Positions 1-47,459 are shown, counted from the first letter of the stretch. The stretch is DNA of 64,000 bases from Deltaproteobacteria bacterium (GCA_033764095.1 JANRJF010000255.1:20154-84153), one strand, 5' to 3'. The notes: generated from the sequence alone by a model not told the origin. Translations and numbers: made by a program.

Positions 1-1
1 G

Positions 2-2020: not shown

Positions 2021-2102
2021 CCACGAACTTCCCCATGAGTGGCACTCGTAGGCGCAGCCGTGCGATTAGTTCAGATATGGCGCGTTCGAGAAGTAAGACA
2101 CG

Positions 2103-3245: not shown

Positions 3246-4515
3246 GCAAAAGACAGGAATTCACGCCGCCGTAGCCGTATCCGGTAACCAGTACGTTTTT
3301 CACGGATCGAGCCGTTGGCACGACCGGGAGGTTCGCCGTCAGATCACCCACTGCCGCCTCCCGAAGGTTTGTATTGGGCGGAACAATCTGGGTCGAAATG
3401 GCCAATGAGCCGGCGGCAACCTGAAAGGCCCCTGAAGCCCCAAATGGATGCCCAAGGACCCCTTTAATTGAGCTAATTGCTGGCGCTGACCCTGCCCCGC
3501 GCAGAGCGATCCTGAGAACCGCGCTCTCCTTGTCATCGAATGTCGGCGAAGAGTTTGCGTGGCTGCAGACGTAATCGATGTCTTTGGCCGATAAGCCGTA
3601 CCTCGACAGTAGTCGGAAGATTCCCTGCGCGGCCACATCGCCAGTCTGATCGATACGGTAGAGGCCCTTGGCATCGCACGAAGACTCACCCCCCAGAACC
3701 TCCGCCAACGGGGCGCCGGCCCGCTCAGCAGCTGCTGCGGCTTCCTCAAGCACGACAAAGCAGGCCCCTTCACTTAGCACGATTCCGGAATGCCTGCGGT
3801 CGAATGGACAAGACGAAAGACTTGGATCCTCGTTGAGCGTCGAGAGTTCCTGGGTTCTGCAAAGCGAGGCGAAGACGCTGGGACTCAATGGGGCCTCGGC
3901 GCCACCCGCGACGCAGAGGTCGGCTACACCCGCCTGAATCAGCAAGCTTCCTAGGCGGATTGCCTCCAATGCAGACGGGCACCCGTTCGCGATGGTCAAT
4001 TGCGGTCCTTGAGCGCCCAGTAGAGCTGCCACCTCTGCCCCCGGCCCGTGGCTAGCCGCTCCACTTACGATAAACGGATTGATCCGCCTGGCACCCCGCT
4101 CCAACATGAGGCCCACCTGAGCCTCAGCATCGGCCCAACCAGCCACCGCAGTCCCTACTACGACTGCTCTCCTGGACGGCGCATACGCACCTTCCTGCAA
4201 CCGCGCGTCCTCTGTCGCCAGCGCGGCCGCGGCGAGGGCGAACTGCGACACCCGGGGCGCGGTTCGAATCGTTCTGGAAGTCAGCAGAGGGAAAAACTCG
4301 TCGTCGGCGACCTGCCCGGCCACTCGGCACGACAAGGAGGAGGCGTCGAATCGGTCAATCGCGCGGATCGCAGACTTTCCCGAGAGAAGCGCCTTCCACA
4401 ACGCGCCCCTGCCTACGCCCACAGGCGCAACCGAGCCGATTCCGGTGATCACCGTCCGCCGTGCTGGGCTCGAAGGCCCCGGGGGAATCGCGCTTTCCAC
4501 AGGGAAACGCTTCAT
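3196..4515 (-). CDS. beta-ketoacyl-[acyl-carrier-protein] synthase (KAS I/II family)
   Basis: N-terminus RRTVITGIGSVAPVG is the classic KAS start. Full-length ~439 aa thiolase-fold condensing enzyme. Start lies 14 nt after the ACP stop. Confidence 0.85.
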   Translation of the reverse strand: MKRFPVESAIPPGPSSPARRTVITGIGSVAPVGVGRGALWKALLSGKSAIRAIDRFDASSLSCRVAGQVADDEFFPLLTSRTIRTAPRVSQFALAAAALATEDARLQEGAYAPSRRAVVVGTAVAGWADAEAQVGLMLERGARRINPFIVSGAASHGPGAEVAALLGAQGPQLTIANGCPSALEAIRLGSLLIQAGVADLCVAGGAEAPLSPSVFASLCRTQELSTLNEDPSLSSCPFDRRHSGIVLSEGACFVVLEEAAAAAERAGAPLAEVLGGESSCDAKGLYRIDQTGDVAAQGIFRLLSRYGLSAKDIDYVCSHANSSPTFDDKESAVLRIALRGAGSAPAISSIKGVLGHPFGASGAFQVAAGSLAISTQIVPPNTNLREAAVGDLTANLPVVPTARSVKNVLVTGYGYGGVNSCLLLGSIYIRSNGRLPNAS

Positions 4516-4528
4516 CTCGGATAGGCTG

Positions 4529-4783
4529 CTACCTTACGCCGGCAGCACACCCATGTATGTATTCGATTATGAGGCCGAGTTCGTTAAGCTCAATTATACG
4601 AATAGGATCTAGCTCGACATCGAACCTCTCTTCGAGCGCAACCTGCATCTCGACGAAAGCAACCGACTCCATGACGACATCCCTCTCTATCGTGGCGCGC
4701 TCATCGAGGGAAAGAGTTGGATCCTGCCCAAACTCCTTCAGCAACTGAAAAACGTACTCGGCAACCTCCTCACGACTCGGCAT
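4529..4783 (-). CDS. acyl carrier protein
   Basis: 84-aa product from an internal ATG (MPSREEVAEYVFQLLKEF...ERDVVMESVAFVEMQVALEERFDVELD). Four-helix ACP pattern with a phosphopantetheine-type Ser in the ESV motif. The upstream part of the 138-aa ORF is probably non-coding. Confidence 0.7.
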   Translation of the reverse strand: MPSREEVAEYVFQLLKEFGQDPTLSLDERATIERDVVMESVAFVEMQVALEERFDVELDPIRIIELNELGLIIEYIHGCAAGVR

Positions 4784-5060
4784 CTGAAACCTCGCGACGC
4801 CGGCCGCGAAAGCTCCGAGTCGTATCCCAAGAGTGCTGCACCGGGCGCCCTCCAGCGCCTGGGAGACCACCTCCCCAGAATGATCGCGCGTCTGGCAATG
4901 GCGGTCGCTCCAACTTTCGCGAGGTAGGTCCAGGATTTGGAACAACTGGCATCATTGACGGCTGAAGTCACGCTGAGTTACGCTTCGGGCCGGCGAGAAG
5001 TCAAGGCGATCTCCTTGGCTCCGCGAAGAACGACGCCAGCAGAGGCAACGAGACGCAATC

Positions 5061-5675
5061 GTGCGCAGCCGGACCATGCCGATAAGCACAAGAGATCTGC
5101 TCAAGGAGTTTTCGTTCAAGGTCGCCGTAGGACCTGACATTGGACCCGCCGTGAACCTCTTTCGACAGGTATATGAGGCTGACGTTGGCTTTGTGCCATC
5201 CGATGGAATGGACGATAGCGCTACCTACCTCATCGCCAAGTGCACCGATGGAGACGTCGCTGCTACATTGCGATTCCTCGGACCAGAGCATCGTCCCTTC
5301 GTGTTCGAAAAATCTTGTGAGGTGGCCCTTCCAGACGGCAGCAGGCCTGCCCTATTGAGCCGCTTTAGCGTGTCGCCGCTATTTCGCGCGGCTCCCCGCT
5401 CGATTGCGCTGCACTTTGGGATGTTGAAGCTTGCAGTCGAATTTGCGCTCCCCTTGGGCGTTACCGACCTTCTTCAATACACCCAGCCGCATCTCATCAA
5501 TTTCTACCGTGCTGCGTTCTTCGAAGCCACGGGTGTGACCTTTGAGTTGCCCCCCTTGCAGAGCAAGATGCATGTTCTTCGCCTCAACTTGCGCACGCTC
5601 GATGAGCGCTGCCGAGCCTCTAACTCCCGCGGCGCAGAGTTCCTTCGTTCTCCTGATCGAATTGTGACCCCGTAA
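5061..5675 (+). CDS. LuxI/FeeM-like N-acyltransferase (autoinducer synthase / N-acyl amino acid synthase family, GNAT fold)
   Basis: LuxI-family landmarks: R..VY....GF (equivalent to R24-F28-W34), acidic DGMDDSATYLI, RFLGP, LSRFSV (the E/L-SRFAV motif), GVTDLL...FYRAAGF. Size ~200 aa. Stop is 3 nt before the histidine kinase start. Confidence 0.6.
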   Translation: MRSRTMPISTRDLLKEFSFKVAVGPDIGPAVNLFRQVYEADVGFVPSDGMDDSATYLIAKCTDGDVAATLRFLGPEHRPFVFEKSCEVALPDGSRPALLSRFSVSPLFRAAPRSIALHFGMLKLAVEFALPLGVTDLLQYTQPHLINFYRAAFFEATGVTFELPPLQSKMHVLRLNLRTLDERCRASNSRGAEFLRSPDRIVTP

Positions 5676-5678
5676 GTA

Positions 5679-7772
5679 ATGCTCCCTTCCTGGTTCGTAC
5701 CCCTAGTGGCAGCCCTCGCAACGGCCGCGCTGGGCGTATTTGTCGCAGTGAGGGGACCGCGAGGCGAGCTGCGCGCCGCGTTTCTGTTTTTCGCCGCCAC
5801 CCTCGTCTTCTGGCACTGCTTTTATCTCGTTCTTTATTTGATACCCGACTACCAGACTGCCTTCGAGGGCGCTCGAATTCTTAGAGTCGGATCCTTCTAC
5901 ATGGTCGCCGCGGTCCTGCATCTTGCAGTTTCGGCGCGAGCAAGACCAAGGCGTCTTTGGCGGTGGATTGTCATTGGCAATTACGCTCTCGCCACCTCCT
6001 TCGTTGTCGCCAATGTATTTGACGTTTGGGTGAAGGAGCTTAGGCGAACCGACGCCGGATACGTCACAGTCGGCACGCGCTGGTACAGCATTCTGAGCCT
6101 CTACGCGTTGCTGAACTTTCTCGTCGCAATATCACTTTCGGTTCGTGACTACTGGATCACGAGGGACCCGCGGGTCAGACAGCAGGTAGGCTTTTGGCTC
6201 GCGGGCATGCTGGTCGCGCTCCCCCTCGGACTCACTAATTTCCTACCTGTTTACGGGGTCGAGTTTCCCCCGCTAGGCAATCTTGGAGCGGCCCTTTGGA
6301 CCGGAATCGTGGCGTACGCGATCGTCCGCCACAGATTGATGGACATCGACGTATTTGTCACCAAGGGGCTCGCTTACGCAGCAGTTACTCTTGTCTTGGT
6401 GACGCCAGCAATCGCAGTGTCAGTTATCCTACAGTGGTGGGCGTTCCGTGCGGTCGACTATGAATTTACGGCGGCGCTCGCGGTCCTGTTCTTGTCGATT
6501 GCCGTTTGTTTTCCGCTGGTTGTGTTCAGTGCCGAAGAGCGCCTGCAACGATCGCTGTTTCGCGCCCGCACCCAGACGCGTCGAGATCTTGCCGCCTTCT
6601 CCCGCAGCATGGTCAAAATTCTCGATAGACAAAGACTGATGGCGGAGATCTGCAACCGGCTGCACGATCTTCTCGACGTCGAACGGGTTGCAATTTACCT
6701 CTTGGATTCTTCAGGTACGCGGTTGGAACTTCGGAAGAGCCAAGGAACCCATGCAGAAACGACGGAGTTTGGGAGTCAACATCCGTTTGTTCGGTGGCTC
6801 GGCCGCCGATCCGAACCGTCGCTTCGCGAGGATGCGGAGGGGCTGGATACGGTGCAGGCAGTCTTTGTCGAGCAAGGGTGGGAGGTCTGCTTACCGATGC
6901 ATAGCGGACGTCAAATGCTCGGATTCCTAGCACTTGGGGCTCGGCATGGGAGGCAAGCGTTCGCGGGGGGCGATCTTGAGCAGTTGGCGGCTATCTCTGA
7001 CGAGGCGGGGGTCGCGTTTGAGAACGCTCGCCTGTACGAAGAGGTCCGGCGGTCCCGTGCAATCATTGATCGCACGAGCAGGCTCTCCTCGCTGGGAACC
7101 TTGGCCGCCGGGATTGCCCACGAGATCCGGAATCCTCTTGTATCGATCCATACGTTCTTCCAAATGGCGCCGACTCGACTCGGCGACGAAGAGTTCATGA
7201 CTTCATTCCTAGGACTGGCGGGAGAGGAGGTGCAGAGAATCAGTAGTTTGGTTGACGAGCTACTGATCTTTGGGAAATCGACGACGACGAATCCGACCGA
7301 GGTGCAGCCAAACGAGGTCGTCGATCGCGGCCTGGCCTTGCTAGCGCCACAGGCGCGTCAGAAGAATGTGACGCTCGATCGAAGTCTCTCAGAATCCCTC
7401 CCCCCCGTTCTGGCCGACGGCGATCAGTTGCTTCAGGTGCTCGTCAACCTGCTCCTGAATGCGATCCAAGCTACTTTGAGCGGCGGTCGCGTCACCGTCG
7501 AAACGCGCCTGATCACGGATGAGACGGGAGAATTCTGCCAGATCGAAATAGTCGACACGGGAGTCGGAATTCCCGCATCGGTTCGTGAAGCGATCTTCGA
7601 TCCCTTCTTTACAACGAAGGACCGTGGAACCGGTCTGGGCTTGTCCGTCGCGCATCGTATCGTCGCCGAATTTGGTGGGTTCCTCTCGGTCGAAAGCGCC
7701 GAAGGCCAAGGAAGCCGATTCAGCGTCAACCTACCTGCGTGCCGTAATCTGGAGTTTCCAGCTGGCGCTTAG
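5679..7772 (+). CDS. sensor histidine kinase: N-terminal ~7TM integral membrane domain, GAF domain, HisKA and HATPase_c (PrsK-like architecture)
   Basis: About seven hydrophobic helices in the first ~300 aa. GAF-like region (VAIYLLD...GFLALG). H-box LGTLAAGIAHEIRNPL. N/G1/G2 boxes (LLLNAIQA, DTGVGIP, GTGLGLSV). No receiver domain. Confidence 0.85.
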   Translation: MLPSWFVPLVAALATAALGVFVAVRGPRGELRAAFLFFAATLVFWHCFYLVLYLIPDYQTAFEGARILRVGSFYMVAAVLHLAVSARARPRRLWRWIVIGNYALATSFVVANVFDVWVKELRRTDAGYVTVGTRWYSILSLYALLNFLVAISLSVRDYWITRDPRVRQQVGFWLAGMLVALPLGLTNFLPVYGVEFPPLGNLGAALWTGIVAYAIVRHRLMDIDVFVTKGLAYAAVTLVLVTPAIAVSVILQWWAFRAVDYEFTAALAVLFLSIAVCFPLVVFSAEERLQRSLFRARTQTRRDLAAFSRSMVKILDRQRLMAEICNRLHDLLDVERVAIYLLDSSGTRLELRKSQGTHAETTEFGSQHPFVRWLGRRSEPSLREDAEGLDTVQAVFVEQGWEVCLPMHSGRQMLGFLALGARHGRQAFAGGDLEQLAAISDEAGVAFENARLYEEVRRSRAIIDRTSRLSSLGTLAAGIAHEIRNPLVSIHTFFQMAPTRLGDEEFMTSFLGLAGEEVQRISSLVDELLIFGKSTTTNPTEVQPNEVVDRGLALLAPQARQKNVTLDRSLSESLPPVLADGDQLLQVLVNLLLNAIQATLSGGRVTVETRLITDETGEFCQIEIVDTGVGIPASVREAIFDPFFTTKDRGTGLGLSVAHRIVAEFGGFLSVESAEGQGSRFSVNLPACRNLEFPAGA

Positions 7773-8148
7773 AGCGGTGGTTAATCCGAACCGCGAGTTG
7801 GACGGGTTCGGCAAACAACGGGCGGCAAGCGGGATACCGGCGAGCGCACGCTTTGGGATGCCGTGCATCCGGGGCGGCGCTGGAGCGAGTTCCAGCCGAT
7901 TCGCGGCCACGGTGCTCGCCAATTGGCGACGCGGCCAAGACGTGCCGTCGCCGCCGCAAGTCGCCAGGACCAAGCAGCGTTCCAAACGTCAGATATTGAA
8001 CGATGGCATCATTCCTGACGACATCTTCGAAGAGCCGGCCGACGACGCCGACAACGACTCAAACCCGGATACTTAGCCTCAAACCCGGACAGTCCCTCGC
8101 CCCTAGGTCGATTGATTCCGGGCGCGGGGCCTGCGAGAATAGGGTTCT

Positions 8149-14946: not shown

Positions 14947-15351
14947 CTACTGCCAGATCACCTGGCGCAGATCGGCCTGGCCGGCGCGCTCCTTGCCGAG
15001 GCGATCCACCGGGCGGTTCTGCGCGTCGACGAAGACCAGCTTCGGATCCCACTCGCGCGCCTCGGTGTCGGTCATCCACCCGAAGGTGGCGATGATCACC
15101 AGGTCGCCGGCACGCGCCTTGTGCGCCGCGGCACCGTTGATGCACACCACCCCCGAGCCGGGCTGTCCGCGCAACGCGTAGGTGCGGAAGCGCTCGCCGT
15201 TGGTGACGTTCCAGATCTCGACTTCCTGGTTCGGCCAGATGTCCGCGCGCTCGAGCAGGTCGGCGTCGATCGTCACGCTGCCCTCGTAATGCAGATCGGC
15301 GCCGGTGACGGTGGCGCGGTGGATCTTGCTGCGCAGCATGTTGCGATGCAT
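14947..15351 (-). CDS. panD: aspartate 1-decarboxylase
   Basis: [12 protein letters not shown]...GSVTID, the pyruvoyl-dependent PanD signature with the self-cleavage Gly-Ser site. 134 aa. Confidence 0.92.
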
Positions 15352-15367
15352 GGGAATCCTCCTGGCC

Positions 15368-16222
15368 TCAGGCTGGGCTGGCGGTGAGTACGGCGTTGTC
15401 GATCAGGCGCGTGCGGCCGACGAACACGGCCAGCGCGAGCAGGGCCGGACGCTCGAGCGCGTCCGTCGGTTCAAGGCTGTCGGCGTCGACCAGCTCGGCG
15501 TAGTCGACGCGCGCCAACGGTTCCGCCGCCAGGACGGTGGTCGCGGCGGCGAGCACGTCCGCGGCGCGGCGCGCGCCGCCGAGGTAGGCCGTACGCGCGG
15601 CGGCGAGCGCGCGCGACAGGCAGCGCGCCGCGACGCGCTCGTCAGCCGCCAGGTAGGCGTTGCGCGAGCTCATCGCGAGGCCGTCGGCCTCGCGCACGAT
15701 CGGCATGCCGACCACCTCGACGCCCATGTCGAGATCGGCCGCCATGCGCCGCAGCACGGCGAGTTGCTGATAGTCCTTCTCGCCGAAGACTGCGACGTGC
15801 GGCCGCACCGCGTTGAACAGCTTGGTGACGACGGTGGTCACGCCGCGAAAGTGCCCGGGACGCGAGCGGCCGCAGAGACCGGCCGTCATCTTGGTCACCG
15901 CCACCTCGGTCTGGAAGCCGGCCGGGTACATCACCTCGGCGGTTGGCAGGTACAGCACGTCGACGCCGGCGCCGGCGAGCGCGGCGCGATCGCGTGCGAG
16001 GTCGCGCGGATAGGCGGCGAGATCCTCGCGCGGTCCGAACTGCATCGGGTTGACGAAGATCGACGCGACGCAGGTGTCGGCGCGCCGGCGCGCCTCGGCC
16101 ACCAGGCTGAGGTGCCCGTCGTGCAGATACCCCATGGTTGGCACCAGGCCGATGCGCCGCCCGGCGGTGCGGGTGGCGTCGGCCCAGGCCTGCATGGCGG
16201 CCGGCGTGGCGATCTCGCGCAC
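15368..16222 (-). CDS. panC: pantoate--beta-alanine ligase
   Basis: [20 protein letters not shown]-type motif. Probable GTG start ~4 nt after the panB stop (alternative ATG at ~16195). The upstream 116 codons of the six-frame ORF are a read-through artefact. Confidence 0.85.
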
Positions 16223-16226
16223 CGGC

Positions 16227-17084
16227 TCAGCCCTTCGCGGCCGCTTCCTTCGCCGGCACGGTGGCGAGCGAGGTGAAGCTGTGCGCCGCGCTGGGGAACG
16301 CCGCGCCGCGCACCTCGCTGGCATAGCTCTCGACCGCCTCGCGCGCCGCCGTCCACAGATCGGCGTAGCGCTTGGCGAAGCGCGGTGCGGTGCGCTCGCC
16401 GAGCCCGAGCACGTCGTGCAGCACGAGGATCTGCCCGTCGCAGTGCGGGCCGGCGCCGATGCCGATGGTCGGAATCTCCAGGCGCGCGGTGATGTCGGCG
16501 GCGAGGTCGAGCGGAATGCCCTCCAGCACGATGGCGAAGGCACCGGCTGCCTCGACCGCGAGCGCGTCATCGATCAGGCGCTCGCGCTGTCCCGGCGCCT
16601 GACCGCGCTTGCGGCCCTGCACCTTGTGGCCGCCCATGCGGTGCACCGACTGCGGCGTCAGGCCGATGTGGCCCATCACCGGAATGTCCACCGAGGCGAT
16701 GCGCGCGATGGTCTCCGCGACCGCGGCGCCGCCCTCGAGCTTCACCGCCTCGGCACCGCCGTCCTTGATCAGGCGCCCGGCGTTGGCGACCGCGTCGGTC
16801 GGGCTGACCTGGTACGACAGGAACGGCAGGTCGGCGACCAGCAGCGCGCGCCGTCGGCCGCGCGCCACCATGCGCGTGTGGTAGACCATCTCGTCCATGG
16901 TCACCGGCAGCGTGGTGTCGAAGCCCTGCACCACCATGCCGAGCGAGTCGCCGACCAGCAGCAGGTCGACACCCGCCTGGTCGGCGATGCGCGCGAAGGG
17001 AAAATCGTACGCTGTCAGGGCGACGATCGGCCGGCCGGTGGCCTTGGCCTTGACGATCTCGGGTACGGTAACTTTCTGCTCCAT
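16227..17084 (-). CDS. panB: 3-methyl-2-oxobutanoate hydroxymethyltransferase
   Basis: [12 protein letters not shown]...[13 protein letters not shown] PanB signature. 285 aa. Confidence 0.92.
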
Positions 17085-38750: not shown

Positions 38751-38923
38751 TGGAACAGCCCCCGATGCGAGGAAGTTGGCTTATGTGGTGAGCCCTACCA
38801 GCAAGCCCCCAACGCTGACAAGAACGGGTGCCTGGGGCGCCGCGGCAGTGCGGATCGTGGACAAAAAAAGAGCCGGGAGGATGCCCTCCCGGCTCTCGTG
38901 AAGCCTCGAAGCGTCAGTGCCGC

Positions 38924-40126
38924 TTACGGCATCGTGATGAAGTCCGGCGTGGCGCGCTCGCCCGCCTGATGGATGTTGAATGCCGTCGTGGCGCGCACCG
39001 TCCCCAGATCGTTCGGATCGGTGCGGTAGAACTCCTCCGCCACGCCGAGCAGGCCGTTGCCGTGCAGCGGCGAGCCGTCATCCACACCGCGGATGCGAGT
39101 CTGGCCGGTGAGGGTTCCGGAGACATAGGCGCTGAACACCGAGAACTGGCAGCTGTTGGAGGTCGGATCGTCGTCGAAGATGGCGCGATCCTTACCGGTG
39201 CCCAGCGAGCACAGTTCGAATTCCTTGAAGCAACGCACAGGACGGCTGGCGGAGAAGCGCTGCTCGAACTCGTTGAAGACCAGGAACTGCGCGGTCGTGC
39301 TGAACAGTGCGACGTCCTGCAGGAGGAAATTCTGCGAGCACGGCACCAGCGTCAGGTGCGTCTTGACATACTGGTTGCTGACCGGTTCGACCGCGTCGTC
39401 GAAGAAGTGGTTCAGGATGAGAACGTTCGGGCAGCCGTTGTACTCAGGATCTTCGCCGCCCAGAACCAGCGTGTTGTCGCCATCGTTGGCGCCGGCGATC
39501 GCCTGGATGCCGATGCCGTTGTAGGCGCGCGCATCGATCGAGCTGTCGTCGTAGGTGATGATCGACACTTCGGCCTTGACGTCATTGCGATCGACCGGTG
39601 CATCGTCCGGGCCGACCTGGACGCACTTGAGCTCGCCCATGAACGGGTCTTCATTGACCGCCGGAACCGAGCCCTCCTGGCCGGCATCAGCCAGCGGCAT
39701 CGAGGTGAGCCCTTCGCTGATGCGCCAGATCAGGGGCTGATGCGGCGTCATCGTGATCTCGAAGTCGGTCTCGATCCAGCCCTCGAAGCACAGCCCACCC
39801 GGGATCGGCGTCTGGCAATCCGCCGCTACCGAGCAGACCCGCGACGGATCGTTGGTGCAGTGCGAGTTCGCGTTCACGTAGAAACAACGCATCTTGACCG
39901 CCTGGTCCGATACGTTGGTGATCTGAATCTCGGTGTCGACCGGGTCGCCGTTACCGGTCAGCACACCGAGATCACCGTCGGAGTCGAAGATCAGCTTTGG
40001 GATGACGATCAGGCCAGCCGGCCGATCAGAGGTCACGTCAGCGCGCGAGGCCCCCGCCGTCAACATCAGTCCGCCGAGGATCGCCAGCGCGCCCGCGAGG
40101 ACAGGATTACGCTTCACCGTACGCAT
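38924..40126 (-). CDS. secreted Cys-rich hypothetical protein, paralog A
   Basis: ATG (MRTVKRNPVLAGALAILGGLMLTAGASRA signal peptide) preceded by AAAGGAGAAGGG. ~400 aa. Paralogous to the next gene. Confidence 0.7.
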   Translation of the reverse strand: MRTVKRNPVLAGALAILGGLMLTAGASRADVTSDRPAGLIVIPKLIFDSDGDLGVLTGNGDPVDTEIQITNVSDQAVKMRCFYVNANSHCTNDPSRVCSVAADCQTPIPGGLCFEGWIETDFEITMTPHQPLIWRISEGLTSMPLADAGQEGSVPAVNEDPFMGELKCVQVGPDDAPVDRNDVKAEVSIITYDDSSIDARAYNGIGIQAIAGANDGDNTLVLGGEDPEYNGCPNVLILNHFFDDAVEPVSNQYVKTHLTLVPCSQNFLLQDVALFSTTAQFLVFNEFEQRFSASRPVRCFKEFELCSLGTGKDRAIFDDDPTSNSCQFSVFSAYVSGTLTGQTRIRGVDDGSPLHGNGLLGVAEEFYRTDPNDLGTVRATTAFNIHQAGERATPDFITMP

Positions 40127-40179
40127 TGCCCTTCTCCTTTCAACCGTCAGGGAGAACCCAGCCACAACCACTTCCGCGC

Positions 40180-41424
40180 TCACAGATCCGGAAGCGTGAC
40201 CTTGTCCACGACCTCGCCACCGCTGGCGGTGAATCGATCACCTTCCATGTGGATGTTGAGCGCGGCGCGGGTCAGGTTGCCCGACGAATCGGCGCGAGTC
40301 ACTCCGGCGACGCCGAGCACCGCGCCGCCATCCGGATTCGGGATGATGCGGGTGTGGGCGGCGACAGTCCCCAGGGAGCCGAAGGAGAACACGGACTTCT
40401 CAGGATTGTTCGGGCTGTCGACCTCGAACAGGTAGAAGTTCTTCCAGCAATCGACGGTCGTGCTGGCCGAGAAGACCTGCTCAAACTCGTTGTAGATCTT
40501 GAACTGGACCGTCACGCTGGCCGGCGTGGCGTTCTCGAAGTCCTCGGTGCACGGGATCAGCGTCAGGTCGGTCAGAGAGGCGCTGACCAGATCGATGTCG
40601 CCGGCCATGTTTTCGATCTGCGGCGGGTTGTTGCACACGCCCGTGCAGTCCGCATCGCTGTAGCACGGCGTATTGACCGGTGCGCTGCAGGTGCCGCCCC
40701 GGAGGTTGGCGTACAGCACGGGATCGGTAACGCCCTCCGAGAGGTGGTTGAGGAGCAGGACGTTCGGGCAGGCGTCGTACTGACCGACTGCTTCCTCGGC
40801 TTCCAAGGGCTGGTTCAGCAGCAACTCGTTGCCGGTCTCGCCGGCGAGGTCGGTGCCCTGGATACCAATCGCATTGTACTTGGAGACGTCGTTGTCGGCC
40901 GAGATCAGCGTCGCCTCACCCTTCAGATGGTTGCCGCCGATCGGATTGCCGGCGACGTCCACCTCGACGCACTTGAGCTCGCCGACGAAGTCCTCCAGCA
41001 CCGGCGGGACAGCTCCTGGATCGATACCAGCATTCGAGCATTGCGGGCTCGGCTGATAGCGACCGTCCGAGCTAGAGCAGACGTCGGTCGGATTGACGAA
41101 GCGACCGGTGCTCACCTGCCAATGGGTCGGCTGCTGCTTGGTGAGCCAGATGGTGAAGTCGGTCACCTGCCATTGCGGGATTCCGAAGAAGTCCGGCGCG
41201 GCATTCACATAGAAGCAGTGCGCGTGCACCATGTTGTTCGAAATGTTGGTAATTTGGATGATGGTGTCACCATCTTCCGAATTGGCCAGGACCTTCGGGA
41301 AAGCGAGGATCGATGCTCCCCTCTCCGTCGTGACGGCCGCGTGCGCGGTGCCGGCCATCATCCCCAGCGCCACCGCGACCCCGCAGAGCCCTGAGAGAAA
41401 AGCATTCCGCTTCTCCGTTCGCAT
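40180..41424 (-). CDS. secreted Cys-rich hypothetical protein, paralog B
   Basis: ATG (MRTEKRNAFLSGLCGVAVALGMMAGTAHA signal peptide) preceded by GAAAGGAGGAGGG. ~414 aa. Shares motifs with paralog A (IQITN.S, CFYVNA, GELKCV.V, NGIGIQ, CPNVL.LNH, FNEFEQ.FSAS, NIH). Confidence 0.7.
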   Translation of the reverse strand: MRTEKRNAFLSGLCGVAVALGMMAGTAHAAVTTERGASILAFPKVLANSEDGDTIIQITNISNNMVHAHCFYVNAAPDFFGIPQWQVTDFTIWLTKQQPTHWQVSTGRFVNPTDVCSSSDGRYQPSPQCSNAGIDPGAVPPVLEDFVGELKCVEVDVAGNPIGGNHLKGEATLISADNDVSKYNAIGIQGTDLAGETGNELLLNQPLEAEEAVGQYDACPNVLLLNHLSEGVTDPVLYANLRGGTCSAPVNTPCYSDADCTGVCNNPPQIENMAGDIDLVSASLTDLTLIPCTEDFENATPASVTVQFKIYNEFEQVFSASTTVDCWKNFYLFEVDSPNNPEKSVFSFGSLGTVAAHTRIIPNPDGGAVLGVAGVTRADSSGNLTRAALNIHMEGDRFTASGGEVVDKVTLPDL

Positions 41425-41755
41425 TGCCCTCCTCCTTTCCAGTCGGCCGAGACTCATACCTCACTCCCTTGCATTCGAAACCAAGACGCGGCCGCGCTTT
41501 TTTTGGACGCGGCTGCAGAAGTGGCGCGTTACATACTCAAAATTCAAACACATTGTCAAGGGAATATCGGGCGTTGCACCGCGGCGTACGGACAAACCGT
41601 TCATGTCCGACTATTCCGCGTCACTGGATGAGCGCCCCTCGCTTGCGGCTCAGCCTGCCAATGCCCGTCCCCTCTCCCTCTACCGTTTCGGTGGGCGCTT
41701 AGATCACGTTTCGCCGAACCGGTCAAATGCAAAACCGGGGACGAGATGTACGCAA

Positions 41756-43090
41756 TCAGGCGAGGACGATCTTGCCACGCCCCTCGCTCACGTTGCGGGT
41801 TGCGTTGCGAGTGTCCACGACCAGGCGCGCATGGCGCACGACGAATTCGTAGTCGACCGTCGTGTGGTCGGTGGCAATGAGGACGGCATCGGCAGCCGCC
41901 AGCGTCGCCGCGTCGAGTGGCACTGACGTCAATCCAAAGTCATGGCGACGACCCGGCTTGAGCGCCGGCACGAACGGATCGTGGTAGGTCACCCGCGCGC
42001 GCTTGCGCGCCAGCAGCTCCAACAACTTGAAGGACGGTGATTCGCGGTCGTCATCGAGATCGCGCTTGTAGGCCACGCCGAGGAGGAGAATCTGCGACCC
42101 GTTCAAGCTGCGGCCCTGTTCGTTGAGCGCATCGGCAAGGCGCTCGACGACATAGGCGGGCATCGACAGGTTCACCTCGCCGGCGAGCTCGATGAACCGC
42201 GTGCTCATCTCGAACTGGCGGGCGCGCCAGGTGAGGTAGAACGGATCGATTGGGATGCAGTGCCCGCCCAAGCCTGGACCCGGATAGAATGGGGTGAAGC
42301 CGAAGGGCTTGGTCGCCGCTGCGTCGATGATCTCCCAGATGTTCAGGCCCATGCGGTCGAAGAGCACCTTGAGCTCATTGACCAGCGCGATGTTGACACT
42401 GCGGTAGACGTTCTCCAGCAGCTTGGCGGCTTCCGCGACCGACGCGTTCGACACCGGCACGACGCGATCGATGAAGGCGCCGTAGAGTGCGGCCGCGACC
42501 CGACCGCAAGCGGGCGTGACACCGCCAACGAGTTTGGGAATCGTGCGCGTGGTGAAGTCGCGATTGTTGGGATCTTCGCGCTCGGGCGAGAAGGCCAGAT
42601 GGAAGTCCTTCGCCACGCGCAGCCCGCCGCGCTCCAGAATCGGCCGCACCACTTCGTCGGTGGTACCGGGATAGGTGGTGCTCTCGAGGACGATCAGCTG
42701 CCCCGGACGCAGATACCGGGCGACCGTCTCCGCCGTGCTGGTGACGTAGGACAGGTCGGGCTCGCGATTCTCCGTCAGCGGAGTTGGGACGCAGATGAGG
42801 ATCCCATCACAGCGCGCCAGATCCGCGTATTCAGCGCTCGGGAAGAATCCCGCCTCGCCGGGTGCCGGGATCGCCGTACGAATGATCGGCTCGAGGCGCT
42901 CGGACGCGACGTGGCGAATGTACGAGCGCCGCTGGCGCAGGAGCTCGATCTTGTCCTGCCGCAGGTCGAACCCGACGCTGGGGAACCCCGCTTCCGCGAT
43001 CGTCGCCGCCAACGGCAGACCGACGTAGCCCAACCCGAGCACGCCGACGACGGCCCGACGCGACTCGAACAGTTCGATAAGCTCCGCCAT
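41756..43090 (-). CDS. nucleotide-sugar dehydrogenase (UDP-N-acetyl-D-mannosamine/-glucosamine dehydrogenase family)
   Basis: Internal ATG at 43090 with GGAGG SD. VGVLGLGYVGLP NAD-binding motif, catalytic GGHCIP, FSPER. 444 aa. Confidence 0.85.
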   Translation of the reverse strand: MAELIELFESRRAVVGVLGLGYVGLPLAATIAEAGFPSVGFDLRQDKIELLRQRRSYIRHVASERLEPIIRTAIPAPGEAGFFPSAEYADLARCDGILICVPTPLTENREPDLSYVTSTAETVARYLRPGQLIVLESTTYPGTTDEVVRPILERGGLRVAKDFHLAFSPEREDPNNRDFTTRTIPKLVGGVTPACGRVAAALYGAFIDRVVPVSNASVAEAAKLLENVYRSVNIALVNELKVLFDRMGLNIWEIIDAAATKPFGFTPFYPGPGLGGHCIPIDPFYLTWRARQFEMSTRFIELAGEVNLSMPAYVVERLADALNEQGRSLNGSQILLLGVAYKRDLDDDRESPSFKLLELLARKRARVTYHDPFVPALKPGRRHDFGLTSVPLDAATLAAADAVLIATDHTTVDYEFVVRHARLVVDTRNATRNVSEGRGKIVLA

Positions 43091-43282: not shown

Positions 43283-44209
43283 TCAGTTGCGCCGACGGAC
43301 CCAGAGCAGCAGTGCCGGCAGCAGCAGGAGGGCAGCGGCTGAACCGTTGCTCTCGCGCGGCGAAACGACATTGCAGCCGTCGTCGTTGTCGGTCGGCGTG
43401 CGCACACCGATCGTCGGCGTGCGCGTCACCGTGTGCGTCGCCGTCGGCGGCACCGTCGAGGTGATTGTCGCCGTCGCGGTCGGCGTCCCCGGTCCGGACG
43501 TGTCGGTCGCGGTGGCGGTGGCCGTCGGCGTTCCCGGCCCGAAGGTATCGGTCGGAGTGGCCGTCGCGGTCGACGTGGCTTCCGTCGGCGGGGTGTCCGT
43601 CGGCGTGGCAGTCGCGGTCGCCGTAACTGGAGGCGTCGAGGTGACCGTCGGCGTTGCCGTCGGCAGCTGATCCACGATGACGATCGAGCCCCCGCGCGTG
43701 ACGACTGGGATCTCCTGTCCCTCCTCGTCGCCGAGGAAGGGCGACTCGATTTCCAGCGCCACCGTGCCGGTCGGCACGCCCGGCTTGATCAGGAAGTCGC
43801 AGGTCGCAAGGTCACCGTTGCCGAGCGGCGGCAGCGGATCGGGCGTCCCGGAGACGAAGATCTCCAGGTTGAGAACCCCGGGCTCGAGGATACGGCCGCC
43901 GATCGCGTGCGTATCGGCGATGCGCTCGGCGACCGAGCAGCTGTCGGCGACCGGCACGAAGAACTCCAGTTTCTCCGCGTCGAACAACAGATCCATCCCG
44001 GCGCTGACGGCGTTGTCCTGGGCGCGATCCAGTGCCAGCGTCACCGACACCGTCCCGCCCGGCACGCCAGTGCCACCGGTGACCGACAGTTCCGGCAACT
44101 CGATGCCCGCGTAGGCTCGCGTCCCGACCCCTACGAGCATCAAGGCACTGAATGCGGTGGTCGCCAGTCCCATTCCCCAGAGTTGCCGCGCCATGCTGGT
44201 GCGCATCAT
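43283..44209 (-). CDS. cell-surface protein: signal peptide, cohesin-like domain, Thr/Pro-rich linker, C-terminal GC-TM-RRR sorting signal
   Basis: Start ATG-ATG with AAGGAGAGG SD. Cohesin-like pattern (TGVPGGTVSVTLAL...MDLLFDAEKLEFF...CDFLIKPGVPTGTVALEI...GGSIVIV). TATATATPTDTPPTEATST... linker. Terminal GCNVVSPRESNGSAAALLLLPALLLWVRRRN. Confidence 0.75.
   Translation of the reverse strand: MMRTSMARQLWGMGLATTAFSALMLVGVGTRAYAGIELPELSVTGGTGVPGGTVSVTLALDRAQDNAVSAGMDLLFDAEKLEFFVPVADSCSVAERIADTHAIGGRILEPGVLNLEIFVSGTPDPLPPLGNGDLATCDFLIKPGVPTGTVALEIESPFLGDEEGQEIPVVTRGGSIVIVDQLPTATPTVTSTPPVTATATATPTDTPPTEATSTATATPTDTFGPGTPTATATATDTSGPGTPTATATITSTVPPTATHTVTRTPTIGVRTPTDNDDGCNVVSPRESNGSAAALLLLPALLLWVRRRN
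43430..43665. repeat. imperfect tandem nucleotide repeats encoding the Thr/Pro/Ala-rich linker
   Basis: Reiterated gtcgcggt(c/g)gc(c/g)gt...cccggcccg units. The opposite strand reads as a VAVAVGV repeat. Confidence 0.5.
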
Positions 44210-44265
44210 GTCCTCTCCTTCCTTCCCGGTTGTGGTCCTCGCCCTACGCAGCGCCCCCGGTCGAA

Positions 44266-47010
44266 TCATGGACAGCCGAGATTGATGTTGTTGATGGCGA
44301 TGGTGATGTCGTTCGCCCGCACCCGTCCATCGCCGTTGAAGTCGGCCGCCAGGCACGCGTCGAGCGGCTGGGTGCCGTTGATGATGTTGACCATGATGGT
44401 GATCTCGTTGGCGCGCACGCGGCCATCGAGGTTGCAGTCACCGACGCATTCGCACTGATCGTTCACGCAGGCCTGGCGGTCATCCAGGCACTGGCCCGGC
44501 CCGGCCATCGGTCCGTCGCACTCGATGATCGGACGGCACTCGTTGCCCTTGCACTCCGTGCCCGAGGGGCACTCATCCGGCTTCGTGCACGGCGGACGCG
44601 GCTTGATCTCGAGCTCGCCACCACTCACCTGCGCGTCAAACGGGTTGGCGCCCGGATCAGCGATCTCGAGACGGTCGAGATCGTACAGCAGCTGGCTCGT
44701 GCTCGGCGACGCCGCCGGCGCAATGCGGAAGTTGCACTGCCAAACCGGCCCTGAGCCGAAGGAGTCGATCGGCGGCATCTTGTCGATCACCGCAACGCGC
44801 AGCCGGCCCAGACCCGGCGGATTGGTTGGCACCTGCGGCAGCTGCACCTCGGCTTCGAAGGAACCTTCCTGCAGCATGCGCGGATGCAACGTGCAGGCCG
44901 GCGTACCGATCGGGACTTCCAGCAGGGAGAGGTCGTAGAGAATGTCCACCTGCGCGGTGGTGATGTCGTCGCCGCCGGCAAGGCCGATATTCACCGTGAC
45001 GTACTCACCCGGGATGCCGGTGATCTTCGGCACTTCGATGGTGCGGGTCTCGCTGCTGCGGTCGAGCGCGTAGATCAGCGGCGACCCCTCGCCCGGGCAG
45101 CCGAGGCCGAGGTTGTTGACTGCCAGCGTGATGTCACCGGCGGTCACCTCGCCGTCCTGGTTGATGTCGCCCGCCGGGCAGATGCCGATACCGCATCCGC
45201 CACCGACGATGCAGACCATCTTCGTGATCTCACTGCCGAAGACGATACCGTCCAGGTTGCAGTCGCCGCCGCACTCACAGATCCCCTCCAGGCAGGTTTC
45301 ACGAATGCCGCGGCATTCGATCTGACCGTCGGGGCACGGCCGCGGCGGCACGCAGACCATGGCGCGGCACTGCGTCCCCTCCGGGCAGTCCTCGTCGACC
45401 ACACAGGTCGGCAGCGGCGTCGGCGTCACCGTCGGCGTCGACAAATCGCGGCAGACACCGTCGACACAGAACAGACCAGACGGGCAGTCTTCGGTCCTGT
45501 CGCAACGGATCGTCGGCGTCGGCGTCGGCGCCTCCACGCACACGTCGTCGGGGCCGCACACCTGCCCAACCGGGCAGTCGGTGTCACGCTGACACGGAAT
45601 CCTACGGGTGGGTGTCGGCGTCGGCGGCGGTGTATCGGTCTTCGTCGCCGTCGCTTCCACCGTCACGTTGGCGCGGATGTAGGCGTCGAGGTAGCCCTGC
45701 GTGTCGGCCGGCACCAGGTTGGTCGCCAGCGACTGGAACGCAACCCAACCGCCGTTGAGACTGATGCTGGGCGGCAGGTCAGGCACGCTGCCGTTCGCCG
45801 GCAGACCATCGACGCTGGAGCTCACCAGGGTCGTGGTCTGCTGCTGCAGGTCGCGCACATACACCTGCGAGTTGCCGTTGGTAGTCACGCCCGCCAACAG
45901 GTTGCTGGCGAACGACCCGAAGGCGACGAAACGGCCGTCGCCACTGATGCTCGGCGGAATGGCGATGTCGTTGCCCTGCTGGCCCATCTCACCGACGCTG
46001 ACGCGCTGCGTCTCGCCGCTCGTGCAGTCGTGCACGAAGACGTCGGCCGCCTGGTTGGTGTCGCCGGCGACCAGGTTGGTGGCGTTCGACTTGAACGCGA
46101 CGATGGTCCCGTCGGCGTTGAGGGCCGGCAGGAAGCTCATCTGGTTGGCCTCGACCCCGGCGCTGCTGACGCTGGCGCGGCAGTACACGGCGCCGTCACA
46201 GGCCACGTAGATGTCGATCACGCCGTTGGTGTCGGGCGACGAGGGGAGCAGGTTGGTCGCGCCGGAGGCAAAGGCGACACAGCGACCGTCAGCGCTGATC
46301 GACGGGGCCACGCTCGGGCCGTTCGCCTGCACGCCGCCGGGTCCGACACTGATCAGCGTCGTCGTGCCGGCGCTGCGGTCACGGACAAAGACGTCGGAGG
46401 TCTGGTTGGTGTCGTCAGGCACCAGATTGCTCGCGACGGAATGGAACGCCACCAGGTTGCAGTTGCTGTTCACGCTGGTGAACGAACTGCCGCCGTCGGT
46501 GGGACCATCGATCCCGACGCTGATCAACTCGGTGGTGGATCTCGTCAGGTCACGCACGTAGACGTCGGTGCGCCCGTTGGTGTCGTTCGGCACCAGGTTG
46601 GTCGCGTCGGAACTGAACGCCACGCAGGTGCAGTCGCTGTCGATCGACGGACGGAACCGCTGCGCCTGACTCGGCCCGTTCGCCGCCTGGCCGCTCGAAT
46701 TGACGCTGACGCGCGTGGTCTGCTCCGCATCGCGGTTGTAGACATACACGTCGGTGAAACCGTTGGTGTCGTTCGGAACCAGGTTGGTGGCATCCGAGTA
46801 GAACGCGACGCAGCGGCCATCGGCGCTCGGCACCGCGCCGCTGCTGTTGCCGTTCGGCTGGCCGCCGCTGGCGCTGACGCTGACCAACTCGACCGGCGGA
46901 TACGGATTCAGCGGCGCGGTCTTGGCCACCTGACCGGTGAGGGTCAGCACGGCAACGAACACGCCCACTCCACACAACGCAACGGTGACCGCTTTTCGTC
47001 CGGCGTTCAT
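44266..47010 (-). CDS. large secreted multidomain protein: 7x PD40/TolB-like beta-propeller repeats, Cys-rich modules, cohesin-like domain, two dockerin (type I-like) modules
   Basis: ATG at 47010 with GGGGAGGTG SD. Signal/TM AVTVALCGVGVFVAVLTL. Seven ~44-aa repeats S.DGR.VAF.S.A.NLV..DTN...DV.V.D. Modules C..D.DCP.G..C....C. Dockerin pairs GDCNLDG.V...EIT.MV / GDINQDGEVTAGDITLAVNNLG and DCNLDGRVRANEITIMVNIING / DFNGDGRVRANDITIAINNINLG. Cohesin-like GIPGEYVTVNIGLAGG...VDILYDLSLLEV. Confidence 0.8.
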   Translation of the reverse strand: MNAGRKAVTVALCGVGVFVAVLTLTGQVAKTAPLNPYPPVELVSVSASGGQPNGNSSGAVPSADGRCVAFYSDATNLVPNDTNGFTDVYVYNRDAEQTTRVSVNSSGQAANGPSQAQRFRPSIDSDCTCVAFSSDATNLVPNDTNGRTDVYVRDLTRSTTELISVGIDGPTDGGSSFTSVNSNCNLVAFHSVASNLVPDDTNQTSDVFVRDRSAGTTTLISVGPGGVQANGPSVAPSISADGRCVAFASGATNLLPSSPDTNGVIDIYVACDGAVYCRASVSSAGVEANQMSFLPALNADGTIVAFKSNATNLVAGDTNQAADVFVHDCTSGETQRVSVGEMGQQGNDIAIPPSISGDGRFVAFGSFASNLLAGVTTNGNSQVYVRDLQQQTTTLVSSSVDGLPANGSVPDLPPSISLNGGWVAFQSLATNLVPADTQGYLDAYIRANVTVEATATKTDTPPPTPTPTRRIPCQRDTDCPVGQVCGPDDVCVEAPTPTPTIRCDRTEDCPSGLFCVDGVCRDLSTPTVTPTPLPTCVVDEDCPEGTQCRAMVCVPPRPCPDGQIECRGIRETCLEGICECGGDCNLDGIVFGSEITKMVCIVGGGCGIGICPAGDINQDGEVTAGDITLAVNNLGLGCPGEGSPLIYALDRSSETRTIEVPKITGIPGEYVTVNIGLAGGDDITTAQVDILYDLSLLEVPIGTPACTLHPRMLQEGSFEAEVQLPQVPTNPPGLGRLRVAVIDKMPPIDSFGSGPVWQCNFRIAPAASPSTSQLLYDLDRLEIADPGANPFDAQVSGGELEIKPRPPCTKPDECPSGTECKGNECRPIIECDGPMAGPGQCLDDRQACVNDQCECVGDCNLDGRVRANEITIMVNIINGTQPLDACLAADFNGDGRVRANDITIAINNINLGCP

Positions 47011-47386
47011 GTCGGTCTCACCTCCCCTAAATCCGACGCGCCGCGCAGCGTGCCCGTTGCCTGCGCGACACGGCACTCACATCGTCTCGCGACCGCGCAT
47101 GCCGAACACCGCCGCTCCACTCCGGCGTCGGCACTCAGGCTCTCGAGCCGTCGAGCCGAGGTTTCGGATCTTTCCGTTCACGCGCGTGTCGACCAACTCG
47201 TCTGCGACTGGTTTCAGTGCCGGCACCGTACAATGTTCAACGGCAAAGTCAAGGATGTTTGATGCATGACAGAGCAGCATCAGATAGCCCAAAGATTGTT
47301 TGCTGACGCCGACTTGCACCGGGCACGCGATGCTGATTGTCGCATGCATAACGCAAGTCGCGGGGCGCGGCGGGTGACCTGGTAAG

Positions 47387-47459
47387 TGGAGCTGAGCGGA
47401 GTCGAACCGCCGACCTCCTGAATGCCATTCAGGCGCTCTCCCAACTGAGCTACAGCCCC
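47387..47459 (-). tRNA. tRNA-Ala (anticodon GGC)
   Basis: 73-nt cloverleaf: GGGGCTG/CAGCTCC acceptor stem with the G3:U70 Ala identity pair. D-arm GCTCAGTTGGGAGAGC. Anticodon loop ATGGCAT. T-arm GGCGGTTCGACTCCGCT. Discriminator A, no encoded CCA. Confidence 0.9.

Follow-up and report, generated by a model that had tools for sequence, protein, structure and literature searches.

An uncultured Candidatus Binatia bacterium (Binatota) encodes what appears to be a non-cellulosomal cohesin-dockerin system, in which a small protein with a single cohesin (CohS) would anchor a large propeller protein at the cell envelope through the latter's C-terminal dockerin (Doc2); we put the probability of this reading at roughly 0.65. 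The two genes are neighbors in the window, by which we mean the whole 64-kb stretch of DNA analyzed (Table 1). The nearest named relatives are Candidatus Binatia and "Deltaproteobacteria bacterium" metagenome-assembled genomes (MAGs), rather than the Myxococcota-like bacteria proposed in the initial annotation. New here are the Binatia host, the conserved gene order, the shuffling of modules among relatives, the co-evolution of Doc2 with CohS, and the way in which the halves of Doc2 evolve together.

Table 1. Features of the cohesin-dockerin locus and the genes downstream (positions in the window; aa, residues of the encoded protein)
Feature	Position	Strand	Evidence
Big gene, 914 aa: signal peptide, 7-blade propeller, Cys-rich, dockerin 1, cohesin B, Cys-rich, dockerin 2	44266..47010	-	ORF, RBS/ATG, Pfam, orthologues
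Signal peptide of big protein, aa 1-31	46918..47010	-	Read from sequence: MNAGRKAVTVALCGVGVFVAVLTLTGQVAKT; conserved in orthologue alignment consensus
Seven-bladed PD40-like beta-propeller, aa 40-448	45667..46893	-	Pfam PD40 32.7 bits; seven repeats by motif
Three Cys-rich modules C..D.DCP.G..C....C with Thr/Pro linkers between, aa 473-556	45343..45594	-	DUF7107 35 bits, EB 26 bits, motif scan
Dockerin 1 (Doc1), internal, aa 580-639	45094..45273	-	Dockerin_1 24.0 bits; family HMM 106 bits
Cohesin B (CohB), internal cohesin, aa 645-806	44593..45078	-	
Fourth Cys-rich module and pre-dockerin Cys module, aa 808-855	44446..44589	-	Motif scan; Cys invariant
Dockerin 2 (Doc2), C-terminal, internally symmetric, terminal GCP, aa 856-914	44269..44445	-	Dockerin_1 35.7 bits
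Small gene, 308 aa: signal peptide, cohesin S, Thr/Pro stalk, Cys + TM + RRR tail	43283..44209	-	ORF
Cohesin S (CohS), aa 35-181	43667..44107	-	Pfam Cohesin, full length, 27.7 bits vs. 24.1
Thr/Pro-rich stalk, ~90 residues, predicted disordered, aa 182-272	43394..43666	-	AF2 pLDDT 40-57, no secondary structure
Tripartite C-terminal sorting tail (DDGCNVV, hydrophobic helix LLLLPALLLW, RRRN), aa 273-308	43286..43393	-	Sequence, AF2 helix 291-307
Nucleotide-sugar dehydrogenase (UDP-ManNAc/UDP-GlcNAc dehydrogenase-like)	41756..43090	-	TIGR03026, 398 bits
Secreted protein A, ~414 aa, conserved in gene block, no assigned family	40180..41424	-	
Secreted protein B, ~400 aa, no assigned family, paralogue of A (44% identity)	38924..40126	-	
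Strong intrinsic-terminator-like hairpin, 13-bp stem and T run, closing the five-gene block	38868..38897	-	

What gives the small protein the build of an anchoring scaffoldin? Its gene begins 56 nt past the stop of the big gene, its product matches NCBI MAG protein SF182_17260 at 100% identity, and about 100 orthologue clusters share its build. CohS is a type-I-like cohesin: it passes the cut-off of the Pfam Cohesin model (PF00963, 24.1 bits), its profile matches PDB entry 6kg8_A (E 5e-8), and its AF2 model (pLDDT 95-98) is a nine-stranded beta-sandwich (jelly-roll) for which the top 50 Foldseek matches are all cohesins, the best being 6kgc_A (E 9.4e-13, TM 0.85). Thr and Pro make up 27% of the whole protein, and the Cys of the tail is invariant in 74 orthologues. 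Signal peptide, cohesin, stalk, and tail thus bear out the anchoring-scaffoldin organization read from the sequence at the outset.

The big protein begins at an ATG preceded by a ribosome-binding site (GGGGAGG, 8 nt upstream), the start matches the consensus of 72 orthologues, and full-architecture orthologues fall into about 70 clusters at 45-92% identity. On the whole protein, Pfam Dockerin_1 (PF00404) scores 44 bits (E 2.6e-11) over two stretches, each of which by itself reaches the cut-off of 22.9 bits. Both have the layout of type I dockerins, with two ~22-residue segments made of an EF-hand-like Ca loop (D1, N/D3, D/N5, D/E12) and a helix; the 72 orthologues show hardly any variation at positions D1, N3, D5, G6, and E/D12 of the four F-hand segments, and the two dockerins with duplicated Ca-binding segments described in the initial annotation stand. 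Doc1, which comes after a Cys module and in every case has CohB immediately behind it, conserves both Ca loops and shows two F-hand helices in the AF2 model (pLDDT 75-84). The earlier claim that the big protein also carries its own cohesin holds: the profile of the CohB family matches the solved cohesin 6kg8_A (E 3e-7) and is homologous to CohS (hhalign 99.4%), although the single CohB sequence, at 20.7 bits, stays under the Pfam cut-off of 24.1. In Doc2, loop position 9 is concordant between the halves in 70 of the 72 orthologues, across changes among R, F, L, T, and G; the two halves evolve in concert, and their symmetry is maintained.

The remainder of the big protein was also read correctly from the start. 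The propeller, then called PD40/TolB-like, has seven blades of ~58 aa each with the motif A-x-N-L-V...D-T-N...D-V-F-V, and this propeller turns up in many phyla in fusions with other modules. Identity with TolB itself is rejected, with 15.2 bits for the TIGR02800 equivalog against a cut-off of 343 and no Tol-Pal context among the window genes. A motif scan counts four C..D.DCP.G..C....C modules and two pre-dockerin Cys modules in total, and the Cys of the three-module region are all invariant in the 72 orthologues.

Which dockerin goes with which cohesin? Using partial Mantel tests with propeller divergence controlled, on a small sample of 14 non-redundant loci that are all related, we found that Doc2 co-evolves specifically with CohS (partial r 0.69, p 0.0002), alone among the pairs tested. 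Doc1 and CohS (partial r -0.09) and Doc2 and CohB (0.00) showed no co-evolution, and the value for Doc1 and CohB (0.21, p 0.06; 0.05 without locus L099) was not significant. Because Doc2 and CohS lie close together on the DNA, joint replacement of the segment could inflate the signal; the absence of any signal in the equally adjacent Doc1-CohB pair counts against such an artifact.

The arrangement of modules among relatives follows scaffoldin logic. The order of big gene, small gene, sugar dehydrogenase where present, and two secreted paralogues is kept in all ~30 related loci long enough to judge. Among loci with enough downstream DNA, about 20 have the big gene followed by a gene for a cohesin plus tail, and in the others, which are variants, the next gene encodes an adaptor or an anchored scaffoldin that bears cohesin and tail. 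One variant (L099) has three tiers, namely the cargo, a Coh-Doc-Coh-Doc adaptor, and a Coh-anchor protein, while two others (L107 and L102) encode an anchored Coh-Doc-Coh scaffoldin. In another relative (P0090) a stalk and tail stand in place of Doc2, so direct anchoring can substitute for Doc2. The co-evolution lends independent support to the proposed pairing of Doc2 with the anchored cohesin, and this replacement supports it as well. Related dockerin and cohesin proteins also form a large repertoire: in a sample of ten relatives that share the dockerin type, we found propellers, a lectin, Lcl_C, and TSP3 domains and no CAZyme, and multi-cohesin relatives and adaptor-type relatives consisting only of cohesins and dockerins occur elsewhere.

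Could the modules be structural only, the dockerin-like ones being plain Ca-binding stabilizers and the cohesin-like ones spacer beta-sandwiches, with adjacency arising for some other reason? Many non-cellulosomal cohesin and dockerin modules do have no demonstrated partner (PMC9012536), but we regard this as very improbable here given the strict co-occurrence and adjacency across ~30 loci, the specificity of the Doc2-CohS co-evolution, the concerted Doc2 halves, the direct anchor in place of Doc2 in P0090, and the existence of adaptors made of cohesins and dockerins alone. A self-polymerizing coat or fiber, in which Doc1 binds the CohB of the next copy and the resulting chains are held at the cell by Doc2 and the anchored cohesin, has more in its favor. 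One chain contains one cohesin and two dockerins, the cohesin of Ruminococcus bromii Amy4 binds its own dockerin (PMC4611034), and every architectural variant retains the Doc1-CohB unit. We nevertheless judge it unlikely: the polymerization suggested as a possibility in the initial annotation gains no support from co-evolution of Doc1 with CohB, which is absent; the ~5 residues that separate these modules favor a cis or structural relation; and the many further relatives with dockerins or cohesins are possible partners. A pTM of 0.76 for the AF2 model of the four-module fragment hints at fixed packing, and a dockerin may be packed on CohB in cis, which would alter the role of this unit as a set of binding ports.

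Where the anchored complex resides depends on the tail of the small protein. Its motif with invariant Cys, TM helix, and Arg-rich end, together with the N-terminal signal peptide, has the layout of MYXO-CTERM, which is also the best-matching known sorting-signal model; several orthologues are named MYXO-CTERM proteins at JGI, and there is only one tail of this type within the window. This tripartite layout backs the membrane/sorting anchor noted earlier, although the score of the small protein itself (TIGR03901, 16.9 bits) is under the cut-off of 20. Without processing of the tail, the small protein would stay in the inner membrane. One might therefore envisage a periplasmic complex, in which the unprocessed tail is an inner-membrane anchor and the stalk spans the periplasm to hold a TolB-like propeller protein. 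The low tail score and the propeller type (PD40/TolB) speak for such a complex, as do the lack within the window of a polytopic CPBP-like protein, the protease type to which myxosortases (core model NF040914) belong, and published work that places MYXO-CTERM and myxosortases only in Myxococcota and Bradymonadales. Still, the invariant Cys just ahead of the helix is a hallmark of processed, lipidated tails, the MYXO-CTERM model is matched by 23 of 74 orthologues at E<=0.01 (best 3.4e-6), the TolB equivalog clearly fails (15 vs. 343 bits), and the long Thr/Pro stalks and lectin/adhesin-like cargo of relatives suit surface display. A periplasmic location is thus improbable in our view, and the reading we prefer remains a propeller protein held at the envelope by Doc2 and CohS.

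How might such a system work? Each protein has a Sec signal peptide and numerous conserved cysteines, and both therefore act outside the cytoplasm. A myxosortase-like protease would cleave the tail of the small protein, which would become lipidated, and by analogy with Myxococcus the outer membrane would then display the protein on its outer face. There, Doc2 would plug Ca-dependently into CohS and keep the propeller protein tethered at the surface of the cell, probably in either of two orientations, as the halves of Doc2 are kept symmetric. The Doc1-CohB unit would offer two further ports, which could recruit other lineage-specific dockerin and cohesin proteins (propellers, lectins, and adhesin-like domains) or, less likely, link one big protein to the next in head-to-tail fashion. 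As the cargo is of a binding and not a catalytic type, the system probably serves in adhesion, in forming a surface coat, or in capturing ligands.

Housekeeping genes flank the pair on both sides, and one strong terminator follows the fifth gene of the block. The nucleotide-sugar dehydrogenase placed downstream by the initial annotation is there, but the two secreted paralogues of the same conserved block had been overlooked. The dehydrogenase occurs in most related loci (it is missing from L004, L098, L100, and L109), and that it supplies glycan for the stalks is speculative. Protein A has zero matches in Pfam, NCBIfam, PADLOC, and PDB, its 1,130 homologues are all without a name, and it comes after the cohesin-dockerin pair in all loci that reach far enough. 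Being co-conserved, the two paralogues probably take part in the system. More tentatively, and with the odds against it, one may picture a hierarchical cohesin-dockerin "surface-ome" as a conserved core-genome trait of Binatia (candidate phylum Binatota), with a lipid-anchored single-cohesin stalk, myxosortase-like sorting outside Myxococcota, a tethered propeller protein whose dockerin and cohesin ports nucleate a larger network or polymer built from lectin-type and propeller-type proteins, and two obligatory secreted paralogues. If true, it would be the first cohesin-dockerin system shown to organize a diderm outer surface for a purpose other than polysaccharide breakdown.

How does this locus compare with known systems? 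A cellulosome is rejected, since no CAZyme bears a dockerin (none was found among the window genes scanned) and the only nonassembly domain is the PD40-like propeller; so is a cellulosomal scaffoldin, as each protein has one cohesin and, by Pfam, no CBM. The noncellulosomal context recognized early on is in keeping with these results and with the housekeeping flanks, and no CBM was detected in the multi-cohesin relatives with the family-specific models used. Like clostridial type-I pairs and anchoring scaffoldins (Clostridium acetobutylicum CaCohA2-CaDoc0917, 6kgc; Clostridium thermocellum OlpA/OlpC, 3ul4 and 4dh2), the system has F-hand Ca loops in duplicate, a dockerin whose internal symmetry suggests dual binding, and a single-cohesin anchor protein. 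It differs from them in sharing only 12-25% identity, in its lack of CAZymes, CBM, and SLH modules, in a tail of the MYXO-CTERM type, putatively a lipid anchor, where the clostridial proteins use SLH or sortase anchoring, in the Cys that each dockerin keeps without exception at loop position 2 and in its terminal GCP, and in a conserved Cys pair per cohesin.

In Archaeoglobus fulgidus, the cohesin and dockerin genes are likewise adjacent, and one of them bears both modules. This archaeon, too, has such modules without degrading cellulose (2xdh; Bayer 1999; Haimovitz 2008; Voronov-Goldman 2011). PMC9012536 states that its cohesin and dockerin have been verified to bind, and a MYXO-CTERM-type anchor, a propeller, and Cys-rich modules are not recorded for it in the literature covered. 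In the amylosome of R. bromii, Amy4 combines cohesin and dockerin and the cohesin of Sca2 is cell-anchored (Ze et al. 2015, PMC4611034). Both systems have a cargo bearing both modules and a separate small single-cohesin protein that is fixed, or here predicted to be fixed, to the cell, are used outside cellulose breakdown, and make self-association and recruitment of more dockerin proteins possible. However, R. bromii is Gram-positive, with cell-surface anchoring, its cargo consists of amylases, and its binding has been measured, whereas here the host belongs to Binatia, the sorting signal is Cys + TM + RRR, the propeller is noncatalytic, two dockerins, Cys-rich modules, and conserved disulfide-type cysteines are present, and binding is inferred. 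The role of MYXO-CTERM in surface display was shown experimentally in Myxococcus xanthus, for example for TraA (myxosortase MrtX; PMC11980579), whose system shares the tripartite tail (invariant Cys, TM helix, and Arg-rich end) and N-terminal signal peptide; here the host is Binatota and the tail scores under the cut-off, and a MYXO-CTERM protein carrying a cohesin was not found in the literature searched. ANME archaea have S-layers, their cargo is mostly substrate-binding proteins, and a conserved two-gene anchor module is not described for them (PMC9012536), but they resemble the present lineage in a large lineage-specific dockerin/cohesin repertoire, in non-CAZyme cargo, and in scaffoldin-like proteins that combine several cohesins with a single dockerin.

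Do the two genes encode genuine cohesins and dockerins? The big protein reads as a propeller, Cys-rich modules, an internal dockerin (Doc1), a cohesin (CohB), further Cys-rich modules, and a C-terminal dockerin (Doc2), and the small protein as a signal peptide, a cohesin (CohS), a Thr/Pro stalk, and a sorting tail. In Pfam searches, Dockerin_1 matched the big protein at 44 bits (E = 2.6e-11), with Doc1 and Doc2 scoring 24.0 and 35.7 bits in a separate scan (cut-off 22.9); PD40 matched its propeller of seven blades of ~58 residues each (32.7 bits), and DUF7107 (35 bits) and EB (26 bits) matched its Cys-rich modules. Cohesin matched the small protein over the whole model length (27.7 bits; cut-off 24.1). 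CohB scored 20.7 bits, under that cut-off, and its identity as a cohesin is settled because the family alignment profiles match a solved cohesin, 6kg8_A, at E = 3e-7 for the big-protein C terminus (which also reached solved dockerins at ~3e-4) and at E = 5e-8 for the small protein. AlphaFold2 modeled the small protein as a confident cohesin (pLDDT 95 to 98) followed by a disordered stalk and, at the C terminus, a helix, and a big-protein fragment (residues 556 to 914) with mean pLDDT 84 and pTM 0.76; in Foldseek searches of both models against the PDB, the top 50 were exclusively cohesins. Residues D1, N3, D5, G6, and E/D12 are kept in all four F-hand loops and are near-invariant across 72 orthologues. 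With HMM matches, profiles, models, folds, and Ca-loop conservation in agreement, the cohesin, dockerin, and PD40 modules of the initial annotation are real, and none of the outcomes named there as refuting it was observed.

CohS and CohB share 27% identity (hhalign, 99.4%) and a conserved Cys pair and on this sequence evidence are paralogues. In both dockerins, loop position 2 is an invariant Cys and a second invariant Cys stands in a terminal G-C-P; these might form a disulfide clasp. The pTM over the four-module fragment suggests fixed inter-module packing, perhaps with a dockerin docked in cis on CohB. The Doc1–CohB junction has the lowest model confidence within the fragment (pLDDT 56) and may be a processing or recognition site.

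The two genes are co-oriented (see the table), and the big-protein N terminus agrees with the consensus of 72 orthologues; the small protein is 100% identical to SF182_17260, an NCBI MAG protein labeled "Deltaproteobacteria bacterium." The 64-kb window holds no other ORF with cohesin, dockerin, or tail modules. An AT-richer stretch between the upstream tRNA gene and the big gene may hold a promoter; a sigma-70 consensus scan found none. An RNA-element search matched only that tRNA, and neither a riboswitch nor anything else within the gene block.

Coordinates of the gene pair and associated features in the window
Feature	Position	Strand	Remarks
Big gene	47010→44266	-	914 aa; ATG; RBS GGGGAGG 8 nt upstream
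Doc1–CohB junction	~45076-45114	-	NLGLGCPGEGxPL; big protein aa 633-645; among the family's most conserved stretches
Small gene	44209→43283	-	308 aa; start 56 nt past big-gene stop
Secreted paralogues A and B	38924-41457	-	about 400-415 aa; 44% identical
tRNA-Ala(GGC)	47386-47459	-	~375 nt upstream of big gene
Low-G+C region	1-8000		G+C 0.56-0.60 vs about 0.70 elsewhere; 657-aa ORF, fatty-acid desaturase, ketoacyl synthase, 7TM-GAF histidine kinase

How might the small protein be held at the cell surface? Its C terminus (...DNDDGC-NVV...LLLLPALLLW-VRRRN) is best described, among sorting-signal models, by MYXO-CTERM (TIGR03901), although its score of 16.9 bits falls short of the model's cut-off (20 bits). 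The same model matched 23 of 74 small-protein orthologues (E ≤ 0.01; best, 3.4e-6), several of which are annotated as MYXO-CTERM proteins at JGI. In Myxococcus, this signal is cut by the CPBP protease myxosortase, its Cys is predicted to be lipidated, and surface display proceeds via the type II secretion system (PMC11980579). By analogy, it is plausible that the small-protein tail functions in the same manner; the window itself encodes no myxosortase-type CPBP protease. Published surveys place the signal in Myxococcota and Bradymonadales only; the family would extend MYXO-CTERM-like sorting beyond Myxococcota, with the window's own tail under the model cut-off.

Which dockerin binds which cohesin? 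We compared pairwise divergence of dockerins and cohesins over 14 nonredundant loci by partial Mantel tests, controlling for propeller divergence (5,000 permutations). Doc2 and CohS co-vary strongly (partial r = 0.69, P = 0.0002; 0.78 without locus L099), a value to be read with the small number and relatedness of the loci and the closeness of Doc2 and CohS on the DNA in mind. Doc1–CohS (partial r = -0.09) and Doc2–CohB (0.00) were not significant. Doc1 and CohB, just as adjacent on the DNA, show no co-evolution signal (partial r = 0.21, P = 0.06), and the self-polymerization proposed in the initial annotation is thus left without support. At loop position 9, the two halves of Doc2 change together (55 orthologues have R/R, 10 have F/F, L/L and T/T occur twice each, G/G occurs once, and 2 orthologues are discordant), the pattern expected of a symmetric, dual-binding dockerin. 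Together, these sequence patterns support Doc2 and CohS as the predicted anchoring pair and, with it, the proposed anchoring via the small protein.

Architectural variants among relatives follow, at the sequence level, scaffoldin logic, and the Doc1–CohB unit is intact in all of them. Locus L099 encodes three tiers (propeller-Doc-Coh-Doc, a Coh-Cys-Doc-Coh-Cys-Doc adaptor, and Coh-stalk-tail), and L101 a Coh-Doc adaptor; in L107 and L102 the small gene is replaced by an anchored Coh-Cys-Doc-Coh-stalk-tail scaffoldin, which L104 and L105, interrupted by contig ends, resemble. In P0090, a big-type protein, a stalk and tail stand at the Doc2 position, and direct anchoring therefore substitutes for Doc2. 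The full-length big-protein alignment, run against the genome collection, was dominated by the widespread propeller and added only L005 as a full-length locus; the small-protein alignment is too variable to seed a genome scan. The propeller motif S.DGR.VAF.S.A.NLV..DTN...DVFV recurs at 40 to 50% identity across many lineages, among them Planctomycetota, Chloroflexota, Cyanobacteria, Actinomycetota, and Gammaproteobacteria (L006 to L084), where matches are confined to the propeller, with nothing shared over the remainder of the big protein.

At E ≤ 1e-3 the Doc2 profile matched 8,909 representative proteins, of which 947 reached E ≤ 1e-10, and the best 148 include many cohesin/dockerin combinations, among them multi-cohesin scaffoldin-like and anchored forms. 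Given this repertoire, the pair would be a single conserved node in a wider network of binding-type proteins. Ten sampled single-dockerin proteins carried lactonase-, Kelch-, or sortilin-type propellers, a legume-type lectin, Lcl_C, or TSP3, with no CAZyme among them. Other Doc2-profile matches (P0380, P0385, P0394, P0423, P0454, and others) have 10 to 15 dockerin-like stretches per chain and, from their sequences, put the F-hand motif to another use, as a repeat.

Is the pair part of a larger unit? Using the window proteins and family-specific HMMs as queries against the ORFs from about 30 related loci, we found the order big, small, (sugar dehydrogenase), A, B in every locus with sufficient downstream DNA; the sugar dehydrogenase is absent from four (L004, L098, L100, and L109), and in the window a strong terminator lies downstream of B. 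Locus L003, from a 4.77-Mb relative, has a group II intron reverse transcriptase (15034-16407) that separates the small gene from the sugar dehydrogenase, and its small protein (574 aa) carries a second, weak cohesin-like region as well as additional Cys-rich modules. The secreted paralogues A and B always lie downstream of the cohesin/dockerin genes. They matched nothing in Pfam, NCBIfam, PADLOC, or the PDB, and their profiles were unrelated to those of cohesin and dockerin; a single C.SD.DC..G.C motif in each resembles the big protein's Cys modules. The conserved order ties two large secreted-protein families (1,130 homologues, all unnamed) to a defined system.

Those relatives that carry a name belong to Candidatus Binatia (phylum Binatota), not to the Myxococcota-like bacteria first supposed. 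Block orthologues filed under "Mycobacterium sp." and "Candidatus Dormibacteraeota" MAGs (P0152/P0262 and P0014/P0167) are probably mis-binned Binatia contigs. Housekeeping genes flank the block upstream (tRNA-Ala, RarA/MgsA, NAD kinase, and RecN) and downstream (Fe-S/CCG oxidoreductase, ETF alpha/beta, and IclR) and recur around relatives' loci; the pair sits in the core genome, not an island. The low-G+C region, whose 657-aa ORF has no Pfam match, may be acquired DNA.

Three other identities were rejected: a cellulosome (no CAZyme or CBM in either protein and no CAZyme among the window genes scanned), TolB (equivalog model 15 bits against a cut-off of 343; no Tol-Pal context), and a defense system (no PADLOC match). 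Cohesin–dockerin pairs are valued as very tight, specific, calcium-switchable connectors, and to our knowledge nearly all that is known of them derives from Gram-positive cellulosomes. Here, two genes form a compact and strongly conserved module, predicted to encode a specific pair, in Binatia, an uncultured, globally common lineage of soil and sediment; the module offers a first handle on the cell-surface biology of this lineage. The predicted anchoring chemistry differs, the putatively disulfide-rich modules suit an oxidizing envelope, and the cargo is nonenzymatic; Doc2 and CohS are a predicted pair for new orthogonal connectors and outer-membrane display.

Our literature search found no paper connecting dockerins with MYXO-CTERM or with Binatota. 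A. fulgidus and ANME archaea are known to have noncellulosomal cohesin/dockerin modules (PMC9012536). In the R. bromii amylosome, Sca2 is the anchor and the Amy4 dockerin is bound by Amy4 itself (PMC4611034); the Binatia pair, as read from sequence, resembles it in combining a cohesin- and dockerin-bearing cargo with a single-cohesin protein predicted to be fixed to the cell. New here are the lineage, the MYXO-CTERM-like anchoring signal, the Cys-rich/disulfide build, the noncatalytic propeller cargo, and the strict conservation of the pair together with A and B.
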